DNA from: Hydrogenophaga sp.
Lineage (GTDB): Bacteria > Pseudomonadota > Gammaproteobacteria > Burkholderiales > Burkholderiaceae_C
Direction of reading: 5' to 3'
DNA length: 64,000 bases
NCBI RefSeq assembly: GCF_030373245.1
Contig: NZ_JAUCZF010000008.1
Location: 49,865-113,864 of the forward strand
Part shown: positions 14,022 to 55,189 of the stretch, piece by piece
Layout: each line of letters begins with the position of its first letter
How positions within the stretch are numbered: the first letter of the stretch is position 1
Notes under the pieces: model-generated
What the model saw: only the letters and a program-made list of their open reading frames with translations
What the model was told of the DNA's origin: nothing
Database searches by the model: none
Translations under genes and position numbers: made by a program

Positions 14022-14220
14022 ATGGCGGATGAAAGATTCGAAATTTGCTCCCTGAGTCCAACGTTGTACCGTAGGCACCTTTCTCAGACAAGACGGGAAT
14101 GCCATGAAACGGGATGGACGTAGTCCATGGACAGGGTCAACGGAGTCCACCGCGGCAAATGACACGCTTGAGCCGTGGCGCGCTGACCGCAACCCCACTT
14201 TTCTTGTGGAGACTTTTGAA

Positions 14221-14763
14221 CTACTTTCGAGTCGATGTGCGCCGCTGCGCGCGCAAGGTCGCGAGATAAAGCCCCTCGACCTTCTCACGCGCCCAGGGGG
14301 TCTTGCGCAAGAAGCGCAAGCTGGATGACACGCTGGGATCGATGTTGAAACAGCGCACCGGAATGCGCTCACCCAGGCCGGCCCAGCCATGGTGCTCCAC
14401 CAGTGCAGCGACCATGGCTTCTAGTGTCACGCCATGAAGCGGATTGCGAGGTTGGGGGGGGTTATCGCCCCCACGCTCCACCGCTTCGCGGGTCGCTGCC
14501 CCCCAAGGGGGCTGACCTTGCTCGGGGCTGCCCTTCGCCGCGGTCGTGTCGCCCCCACGCTCCGCCGCTGCGCGGGTCGCTGCCCCCCGAGGGGGCTGGG
14601 CCTGCCTTGGGGGCGGCCCGGCGACAGGACCGTTGCCTCCACGCTCCACCCCTGCGCGGGTCGCTGCCCCCCGAGGGGGCTGGGCCTGCCTTGGGGGCGG
14701 CCCGGCGGCTGGCCCGTTGCCTCCCTCCACAGACACCTTCGAGTTCTGTGTATCTGCGCTCAT
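14221..14763 (-). CDS. VF530/DUF2132 family protein with a REP-derived 3x28-aa N-terminal repeat
   Basis: C-terminal domain [49 protein letters not shown] at 14763 overlaps the gshB TGA (ATGA). Confidence 0.8.
14464..14722 (-). repeat. Three tandem 84-bp REP-like units, family A
   Basis: The anchor ccacgctcc recurs at 14471, 14555 and 14639 (period 84). Shared core gggtcgctgcccccc(g/a)agggggctg. Confidence 0.92.
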
Positions 14764-15704
14764 GCGAGCGCCGCTTCCAGTGCATCCACAAACATCGCAG
14801 GCACATCGAAGCCAGTCTGGTCGTGGATCTCCTGGAAGCACGTCGGGCTGGTGACATTGATTTCGGTCACGCGGTTGCCAATCATGTCCAGCCCCACCAA
14901 CAGCAGGCCGCGCTCGGCCAGGGTGGGTGCGATGGCTTCGGCCACCCGGCGATCGGCGTCGGTCAGCGGCTGAGCCACACCCTTGCCACCCGCAGCCAGA
15001 TTGCCGCGCACTTCACCCCCTTGCGGAATGCGCGCCAGCACAAACGGCGCCACTTGCCCACCAATCAGCAGCAGGCGCTTATCGCCCGCTGCGATCTCAG
15101 GCAAGTAACGCTGCACCATCACGCTGGTGGCGCCGCCCTGGTTGAGCGTCTCGATGATGGCGCCCAAGTTCATGCCGTCTGGCCCGACGCGGAAGATGCC
15201 AGTGCCCCCCATCCCGTCCAACGGTTTGAGGATGATGTCTTGCTGCTCGGTGTGGAAATGCCGGATCGCCTCGGGCGAGCGCGTCACCAGTGTGGGGGGT
15301 GCGTACTGCGCAAATTCCATCAGCGCCAGCTTTTCCGGGTGGTCGCGCAGCGCACGCGGGCTGTTGAAAACCCGAGCCCCCTCGCGCTCGGCCTGTTCCA
15401 GCAAGTGGGTGGCGTAGAAAAACTCGCTGTCAAACGGCGGGTCTTTGCGCATGAGCACCGCGTCGAAATCGCGCAGGGCTTCGCGCCCCTGGTGCTCCAC
15501 GTGGTACCAGTCGCTGGCGTCGCCCGTCAGCGTGATGCGGCGCACCAGTGCCGACACCGGCTGACCGGACTGCCACTGCATGTGTTGCGGCTCGCAGGCG
15601 GCCACCGCATGGCCGCGGCGCTGAAGCTCGCGCATCATGGCGAAGGTGGTGTCCTTGTAGATCTTGAAGGTGGCGAGAGGGTCGGCGACGAAGAGGATGT
15701 TCAT
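14760..15704 (-). CDS. gshB: Glutathione synthetase
   Basis: [34 protein letters not shown] and EINVTSPT (ATP-grasp fold). Confidence 0.96.
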
Positions 15705-51821: not shown

Positions 51822-52012
51822 GCGCGTGGCGGTGCTGGTGTCTGCAGCGCGGGCAGAGGGGGCTGGGTTCAGGGCGGACACGTCGGCTGTAGGCAAAGCC
51901 GGTATTGTGGCCGAACCCTGGGTTGCACACGGGCGTTACGCCTGCAGCGCCAGCCCGCTCGGCTTATCATGCTCGGTTGCCTTTCTTTCGGCGGTTGCAC
52001 CCGTCCTTCCCC

Positions 52013-55189
<3,177 letters not shown>

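Follow-up and report, generated by a model that had tools for sequence, protein, structure and literature searches.

The principle that a dispersed palindromic repeat can lie inside a gene is not new: work on Rickettsia palindromic elements (RPEs) established it in 2000, and work on intragenic REPs in 2013. RPEs (Ogata et al. 2000, Science 290:347; Ogata et al. 2002, Genome Res 12:808; cited from PMC10969869) are the classic in-frame selfish elements of about 100-150 bp, AT-rich and carried by an obligate intracellular alphaproteobacterium; they occur as palindromic repeats in many unrelated conserved genes, where they encode a recurring, tolerated peptide. Di Nocera, De Gregorio and Rocco (2013, BMC Genomics 14:522; PMC3733652) reported that REPs lie mostly within 20 bp of the 3' ends of ORFs, that some of them supply stop codons, and that a minority are entirely intragenic, with uvrA and other repair genes prominent among the hosts. 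They also described REP clusters encoding 43-82 aa in the betaproteobacterium Thauera, and discussed REP copies at N-termini, most of which they judged doubtful as coding sequence; N-terminally decorated Rickettsia proteins are, according to the same study, expressed.

In the window, the 64,000-nt stretch of a Hydrogenophaga sp. genome that was analyzed here, a tandem array of such a repeat stood between the start codon and the domain of a VF530/DUF2132 gene. This array was clearly a new example of the known phenomenon of a repeat inside a gene, and not a new kind of system. It is distinguished as an N-terminal case with comparative evidence of translation, by variation in the copy number of a dispersed element within a gene, and by a share of in-gene copies that is unusually high for a free-living bacterium. 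For Hydrogenophaga, no account of such repeats turned up in the literature searches.

The family to which the array belongs resembled REPs in having many dispersed palindromic copies, present as singletons and clusters and located mainly just after the 3' ends of ORFs. It differed from them in its unit, which is ~80 nt long with three hairpins where the classical REP is a palindrome of 20-40 bp; in its consensus, GCCGGGCCGCCCCCAAGGCAGGATCAGCCCCCTCGGGGGGCAGCGACCCGCGCAGCGGCGGAGCGTGGGGG, which is without a GTAG or CGTC tag or complement; and in its N-terminal copy at VF530, for which coding is argued from comparative data. A REPtron (a RAYT gene flanked by the repeat) was not found, as nhmmer placed no copy within 1 kb of the only Y1_Tnp gene in an assembly that is 91% complete and from which a second such gene could be missing. 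With neither the tag nor a REPtron, the element was REP-like yet departed from classical REPs in two defining respects. As with RPEs, insertion was in frame, with Pfam domains left intact on both sides or split in two. However, the Hydrogenophaga family is 80% GC, belongs to a free-living betaproteobacterium, is mostly intergenic at stop codons and forms tandem arrays; the resemblance was functional only, and homology between an 80% GC element and an AT-rich one is not expected. The array also shared with coding VNTRs a unit that is a multiple of 3 and a copy number that differs between near-identical genomes, but its unit, one copy of an element dispersed throughout the genome, did not evolve locally, and no frame-switching phase variation was seen.

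The VF530 locus and its repeat array

The glutathione synthetase gene gshB (14760..15704, minus strand; 314 aa in the ORF list; Pfam GSH-S_N, E 6e-43, and GSH-S_ATP, E 9e-69) and the VF530/DUF2132 gene (14221..14763, minus strand; ORF list and Pfam) overlapped on the same strand. The ATG of the latter (14761..14763, minus strand) and the TGA of gshB (14760-14762) formed an ATGA, and from this coupled ATG the VF530 frame encoded 180 aa, consisting of a repeat-derived tail of ~105-106 aa and a domain region of 74 aa. The VF530 domain itself (PF09905; 14263..14448, minus strand) occupied aa 106-167.

Tandem Repeats Finder (TRF) returned a single array at 14467-14721, with a period of 84, 3.0 copies and 84% matches. 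Unit 1 (14638..14721, minus strand; TRF; nhmmer 55.0 bits) was of the young type and belonged to the stem-1 subfamily GGGCCAGCC..GGCAGGCCC, as did unit 2 (14554..14637, minus strand; TRF and nhmmer); these two were identical at 79/84 nt and their peptides read ..(G/A)(V/A)ERGG. Unit 3 (14470..14553, minus strand), defined by TRF and by comparison with relatives, belonged to the stem-1 subfamily GACC..GGTC, was the ortholog of the single unit found in relatives, and had diverged, being identical to units 1 and 2 at 58-60/84 nt. Directly upstream of unit 1, a partial repeat-like remnant read from the sequence, GTGTCTGTGGAGGGA (14722..14736, minus strand), resembled the 3' end of a unit, and many single copies elsewhere in the genome were preceded by a similar partial 3'-end-like motif. 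Over its BLAST positions 15-84, unit 2 was 98.6% identical to intergenic copies at C1:146593 and C1:472427. Because unit 3 shared the stem-1 type and the diagnostic bases of the relatives' unit, while units 1 and 2 belonged to another subfamily, the locus points to at least two probable acquisitions at the VF530 site, followed by one duplication.

An earlier note on this DNA had described three 84-bp units between the start codon and the domain, two of them alike and the third diverged, with an ATG at 14763 that overlaps the gshB stop, and all of this anatomy was recovered here. A codon scan of the frame also bore out its statement that no other ATG precedes the NPLHG at which the domain begins, and listed in-frame GTGs at codons 10, 12, 39 and 95. 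The GTG at codon 95 (14479..14481, minus strand), within unit 3, was the sole candidate internal start near the domain; it lay 12 codons upstream of NPLHG and would give a product of about 86 aa. The note had placed this codon near 14482, so that its existence was correct while its position had to be amended to 14481. Two units had no stop codon in any of the six frames, as had been claimed, and the remaining unit had one antisense stop.

A dispersed repeat family

The genome comprises 3.86 Mb in 10 contigs (C1 onward) at 64.7% GC, and its closest named relatives are Hydrogenophaga sp. S07.Bin178 and H. flava NBRC 102514. BLAST and iterated nhmmer searches detected 88 copies of the repeat in 64 clusters on all 10 contigs, and the repeat is therefore not a chance occurrence. 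The element is about 80 nt long, is 80% GC and has three hairpins, of which hairpin 2 is a conserved CCCCC-TCG-GGGGG and hairpin 3 is CCCGCGC..GCGTGGG. The stem sequence of hairpin 1 differed among copies yet stayed complementary: among 60 full-length copies, pair 6-33 was UA in 28 and CG in 24, and pair 10-29 was CG in 27 and GC in 18. The pairs AU, GC, UA and CG thus interchanged at the same positions, while the loop and hairpins 2 and 3 were conserved. Such compensatory changes in stem 1 define the subfamilies and imply selection for the hairpin itself.

The location of clusters was assigned with a codon-usage model trained on this genome and applied to the flanks, and the counts are approximate. 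In 35 of the 51 non-genic clusters, the repeat followed a stop codon at a distance of 2-20 nt. Their polarity was fixed, with the G-run end turned toward the stop and the ..GAGCGTGGGG end pointing to it on the opposite strand (e.g., C1:472368-472496, C5:49209-49521 and C6:157910-158230). This docking with fixed polarity suggests that the element is targeted to gene ends. The other clusters included 2 that supply a stop codon, 2 of reverse polarity, 12 of unclear placement and 13 in frame within long ORFs. At C1:341548-341614 and C1:663448-663597, a reading frame ran 44 nt into the repeat, which formed the C-terminus and the stop codon.

Four contig ends lay within repeat copies (C2:2-51, C2:549307-549351, C3:446230-446382 and C6:1-66), which indicated that the family limits assembly and that array lengths elsewhere may be unreliable. 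The periods of intergenic arrays ranged from 53 to 113 nt; they were multiples of 3 in 7 of 18 and often exactly 84 nt. Both in-gene arrays had a period of exactly 84 nt, but 3n periods were not special to genes. A 3n period was rejected as a mark of gene location since intergenic arrays are often of 84 nt also; the period belongs to the family as such, and its fit to the reading frame is incidental.

Conservation of the start codon and reading frame across Hydrogenophaga

Among 131 Hydrogenophaga genomes searched, both the end of gshB and the VF530 domain were located at 39 distinct loci (two repeat rows excluded). An [A/G]TGA overlap with gshB was present in nearly all of the Hydrogenophaga loci, with or without the repeat. 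In repeat-free congeners (e.g., G002) the gene started at the ATGA and ran through 8-25 variable Pro/Ala/acidic residues before reaching QPRNPLHG, and the tail ahead of the domain was likewise short and unconserved in other Comamonadaceae, the normal tail of the family being 6-30 aa. As the repeat-free congeners start at the same ATGA, the repeat sits inside the ancestral coding sequence, and the gshB-overlapping start is the ancestral start of the gene in the genus.

A unit detectable by nhmmer lay between the coupled start and NPLHG in 13 species, in amounts of 0.5 to 3 units. In all 13, the unit had the same orientation, the start was in frame with the domain and there were no stops. The spacers measured 90, 117, 120, 123, 132, 153, 231 or 318 nt, all multiples of 3, and reflected at least five length changes other than unit duplications, every one of them 3n; the probability of this by chance is about (1/3)^5 = 0.004, with the 13 species not being independent and probably sharing one ancestral insertion. 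In 8 of the 13, the frame ahead of the domain offered no further ATG, GTG or TTG, so that these species have no way of making the domain other than by translating the repeat. In H. flava NBRC 102514, a single unit follows a GTG start, and no alternative start is present. Comparison of unit number and start site across relatives, which had been proposed as a check, thus favored read-through, with the frame kept in 13 of 13 species across eight spacer lengths.

One ortholog, in a MAG that is 72% complete (G137; L128 1720-1840, minus strand), was frameshifted between the ATGA and the domain and lacked any in-frame start ahead of NPLHG; either this ortholog is a pseudogene or an indel in a G/C run arose during assembly. 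A second genome (G138) had a run of N in the array and was left out of the judgement of frame. Some tblastn rows that reached query residue 14-35 with an internal TGA were considered as candidates and rejected, as they were spurious read-through into the alternative frame of gshB and not repeat units. A 111-nt tandem duplication that included the start codon was observed in G098 (L113, minus strand, upstream of 1815). It took in the gshB end and the ATGA together with the N-terminal codons and a single repeat unit, and left two in-frame starts of the coupled type (..PEMTEDDD..RGGCPEMTEEDD..).

Copy-number variation

The number of units among relatives ranged from about 0.3 to 3.5, and the tail of variable length that the earlier note had envisaged was found to vary in steps of 84 nt between near-identical contigs. 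Metagenome proteins of the same clade had 1.4 to 3.5 units with a 28-aa period, all behind the ancestral MS-acidic N-terminus, and a single cluster at 90% identity held members of 132, 160 and 188 aa. The contigs encoding these three lengths (L165, L167 and L162) had the gene order of the window and flanks that were 99.7-100% identical, and differed solely by 0, 84 or 168 nt, i.e., by whole 84-nt units; they are short-read metagenome assemblies in which some collapse of repeats is possible. The species they represent is sister to that of the window, with gshB DNA that is 88% identical, and it was in this sister species that copy number changed in 3n steps between near-identical genomes, as in a coding VNTR. 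Exact-protein look-ups placed the 180-aa protein on record in no other assembly, and its count of three units rests on a draft assembly of a genome whose contigs often break at this repeat.

Copies inside other genes

Twelve further in-frame clusters were located within the long ORFs of 11 other genes. About one fifth of all clusters were in frame inside genes, and several of the host genes are essential. The conserved Pfam domains flanking or split by the repeat were those of a Mur ligase, Fmt, GlnE, two acyl-CoA dehydrogenases, a xanthine-dehydrogenase-type FAD subunit, an ABC ATPase, a biotin carboxylase, a UvrA-like protein of 2260 aa, RecQ and UvrA. The FAD subunit carried two in-frame copies, and the copy in RecQ sat within the zinc-binding domain. 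The uvrA copy is in the window (52785-52851, in the ORF at 51893-55186, plus strand), where it encoded aa 298-320 just after the Pfam stretch of the UvrA interaction domain, which ends at aa 296. In glnE (C1:1058701-1058933; nhmmer and Pfam), the repeat ran in the opposite orientation as three 84-nt units that kept the frame (TPTLPAARGALPPEGVAADLGRPGDGGL x3); they separated the GlnE domain from the nucleotidyltransferase-associated region downstream of it.

In fmt, an insertion of 23-27 aa in a loop of the catalytic N-domain (C1:1022886-1022953) was full length only in this genome among the congeners compared, with LILPQWVLDAMGT[AGPTQGAQAPVGGSAPREAGNVG]ARRLGC in place of the relatives' LILPQWVLDAPRLGC. 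None of the 15 congeners had the full unit, and two (G006 and G003; L137 and L138) had short in-frame remnants, AMGPLAPEGS.. and AMAGDRRARGLA.., which show decay by in-frame deletion. With regard to MITEs, which carry terminal inverted repeats and a target-site duplication, comparison of the filled and empty fmt sites revealed an old, partly deleted insert with no obvious duplication, and no clean boundaries emerged for the element. The 12 further in-frame copies, together with the absence of the full fmt unit from the 15 congeners, supported the earlier suggestion of an element able to enter a gene and leave it unbroken.

Among the 10 in-gene copies of the same orientation, 8 shared one reading phase at the 5' anchor (binomial P ~0.003, or ~0.01 when the choice of phase is allowed for). 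This sharing is a hint that copies are filtered on the peptide they encode. At VF530 the copy had the common phase at its 5' end and, owing to a middle segment that is 1-2 nt longer, a different phase beyond it.

Predicted protein product

The VF530 domain matched positions 2-63 of the 63 in the Pfam model at 107.6 bits, against a cut-off of 27, and the solved VF530 structure 2jvw_A matched aa 104-176 (E 3.6e-22). In an AlphaFold2 model built with an alignment of 23 sequences, residues 1-110 lacked secondary structure (block-mean pLDDT 45-68), whereas residues 114-178 formed four helices, with a block-mean pLDDT of 82-93 from residue 111. The model therefore predicts a disordered tail of ~105 residues ahead of a confident four-helix domain. 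Pro, Gly and Ala together make up 52% of the tail, whose net charge is +4 and in which there are two PPP motifs. As 2jvw has just 6 residues ahead of the domain, an N-terminal extension is unlikely to disturb the fold, and the site would be a permissive one. Literature searches found nothing on the function of VF530.

Probable translation of the array

Several sequence tests did not tell the candidate starts apart. The composition of the DNA alone gives a probability of finding no stop of 0.53 for 84 codons at 80% GC and of 0.28 for the 105 N-terminal codons, as the earlier note had anticipated in its caveat that high GC makes stops rare. The open frame alone is therefore no more than chance would give, and missing stop codons were rejected as evidence of coding. 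Shine-Dalgarno pairing was -2.3 kcal/mol for the GTG at codon 95 and -3.5 kcal/mol for the ATG, neither of which beat background, and the energies of all five candidate starts (-3.9 to +0.2 kcal/mol) were discarded as non-discriminating, being no better than those of random 17-mers. The codon-usage log-likelihood of the array was negative in all six frames and its GC by codon position (0.86/0.78/0.74) was not coding-like; both measures were set aside as uninformative for a young insert. The gshB-VF530 array region folded more stably than shuffled sequence (z = -3.0), which left the choice between the ATG and GTG starts undecided. Promoter and terminator scans found no promoter-like or terminator-like sites at the VF530 locus, and a search of 14100-14900 against Rfam gave no hit with an E of 1 or below.

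Our comparison of relatives was more informative, and suggested that the array is probably translated from the gshB-coupled ATG, with read-through into the VF530 domain. In this it supported the model that the earlier note had preferred, on the grounds of the ancestral start, the 13 of 13 conserved frames and the 8 species in which no alternative start exists. A REP-like repeat with three hairpins probably entered the DNA for a short, unconstrained N-terminal tail, downstream of the coupled start codon. Unit 3 would be old and common to relatives, and a second subfamily would have come later and been duplicated into units 1 and 2. The ORF would have stayed intact through these events because the sense frames of the repeat are free of stops and its 84-nt period corresponds to 28 codons. 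Ribosomes starting at the coupled ATG would read through the array to give a 180-aa protein with a disordered tail and a four-helix domain, and the number of units would shift by slippage or unequal recombination in steps of 84 nt.

It is rather improbable that the array is instead an untranslated leader in this genome, with translation starting at the GTG of codon 95 (14481) to give ~86 aa and the long ORF being an accident of GC content. Such a start exists, its 12 codons before NPLHG fall within the 6-30 aa range of the family's tails, and gene callers choose the corresponding GTG where contigs are truncated (P0127 and P0133); Di Nocera et al. (PMC3733652) moreover considered many REPs at predicted N-termini to be probably extragenic, and stop-free frames are expected by chance. 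An untranslated leader is, however, at odds with the retention of the ancestral start in frame over eight spacer lengths in 13 species, 8 of which have no internal start, and the GTG itself lies in a GC-rich hairpin region and pairs only weakly as a Shine-Dalgarno start (-2.3 kcal/mol). A ribosome coupled at the ATGA would translate from the ATG anyway, so that the GTG would at most add a second, shorter isoform. Far less credible still was the proposition that assembly produced the three-unit array artefactually, or that the gene is decaying, and that the long ORF has no biological meaning here. Repeat copies coincide with contig ends at four places (C2 at both its ends, C3 at its end and C6 at its start), which would fit an artefact, as would the lack of the exact 180-aa protein in any other assembly on record, and one relative is frameshifted. 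Against this, units 1 and 2 differ at 5/84 positions and unit 3 at about 25, which allows reads to place the units; arrays of 1.5 to 3.5 units in the sister species were assembled independently in several metagenomes; and the VF530 domain is intact and conserved, at 107.6 bits.

Read-through from the coupled ATG is compatible with another reading, in which the repeat acts mainly at the level of RNA or DNA (mRNA stability, gyrase binding or coupling) and its translation is a tolerated by-product. This reading concerns function only, and we hold it to be possible though somewhat unlikely. The compensatory changes in stem 1 and the fold z of -3.0 speak for it, as does the docking of 35 clusters 2-20 nt after stops with fixed polarity, which is typical of REPs thought to act on transcripts (PMC3733652). 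However, the polarity at the VF530 site is the reverse of that of the stop-docked copies, stem 1 of unit 2 is degraded, and neither a promoter-like or terminator-like site at the locus nor an Rfam match was found. We consider doubtful, as a combined proposal, that the family is an active, coding-compatible mobile module whose in-gene copies are filtered or selected for one phase and that the number of VF530 units tunes activity or expression. In the same doubtful proposal, the phase would encode a Gly/Pro/Ser-rich linker (AGPPQ.R.AP.GGS.PR..G.VG), and the tuning could conceivably operate through, e.g., Arg-rich DNA contacts or EF-P-dependent PPP motifs. If it were true, the array would be an evolvable protein module derived from a repeat, rather than tolerated junk.

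N-terminal repeat insertions are usually dismissed as errors of start annotation, and the comparative record here makes a strong case for translation, one that is built on the conserved coupled start, the eight spacer lengths, the relatives without an alternative start and the change in copy number by whole units. This genome could serve the study of how selfish repeats seed disordered segments, how these are later trimmed in frame, and how gene callers handle them.

A Y1 gene with its own repeats

The only Y1_Tnp gene in the assembly was matched at C2:131472-131798, with an open frame from about C2:131373. This gene (IS200/RAYT-like; C2:131370-132244) was flanked by AT-rich inverted repeats of 23 nt, TAATCGGGGTCAGATTCCAATTA, that are unrelated to the family of the VF530 array. 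About 15 further copies of TAATCGGGGTCAGATTCCAATTA were observed, clustered on C4 (C4:269.6-274.9 kb) and also present at C7:144760-144822; these copies represent a small, distinct family of TIRYT-type repeats.
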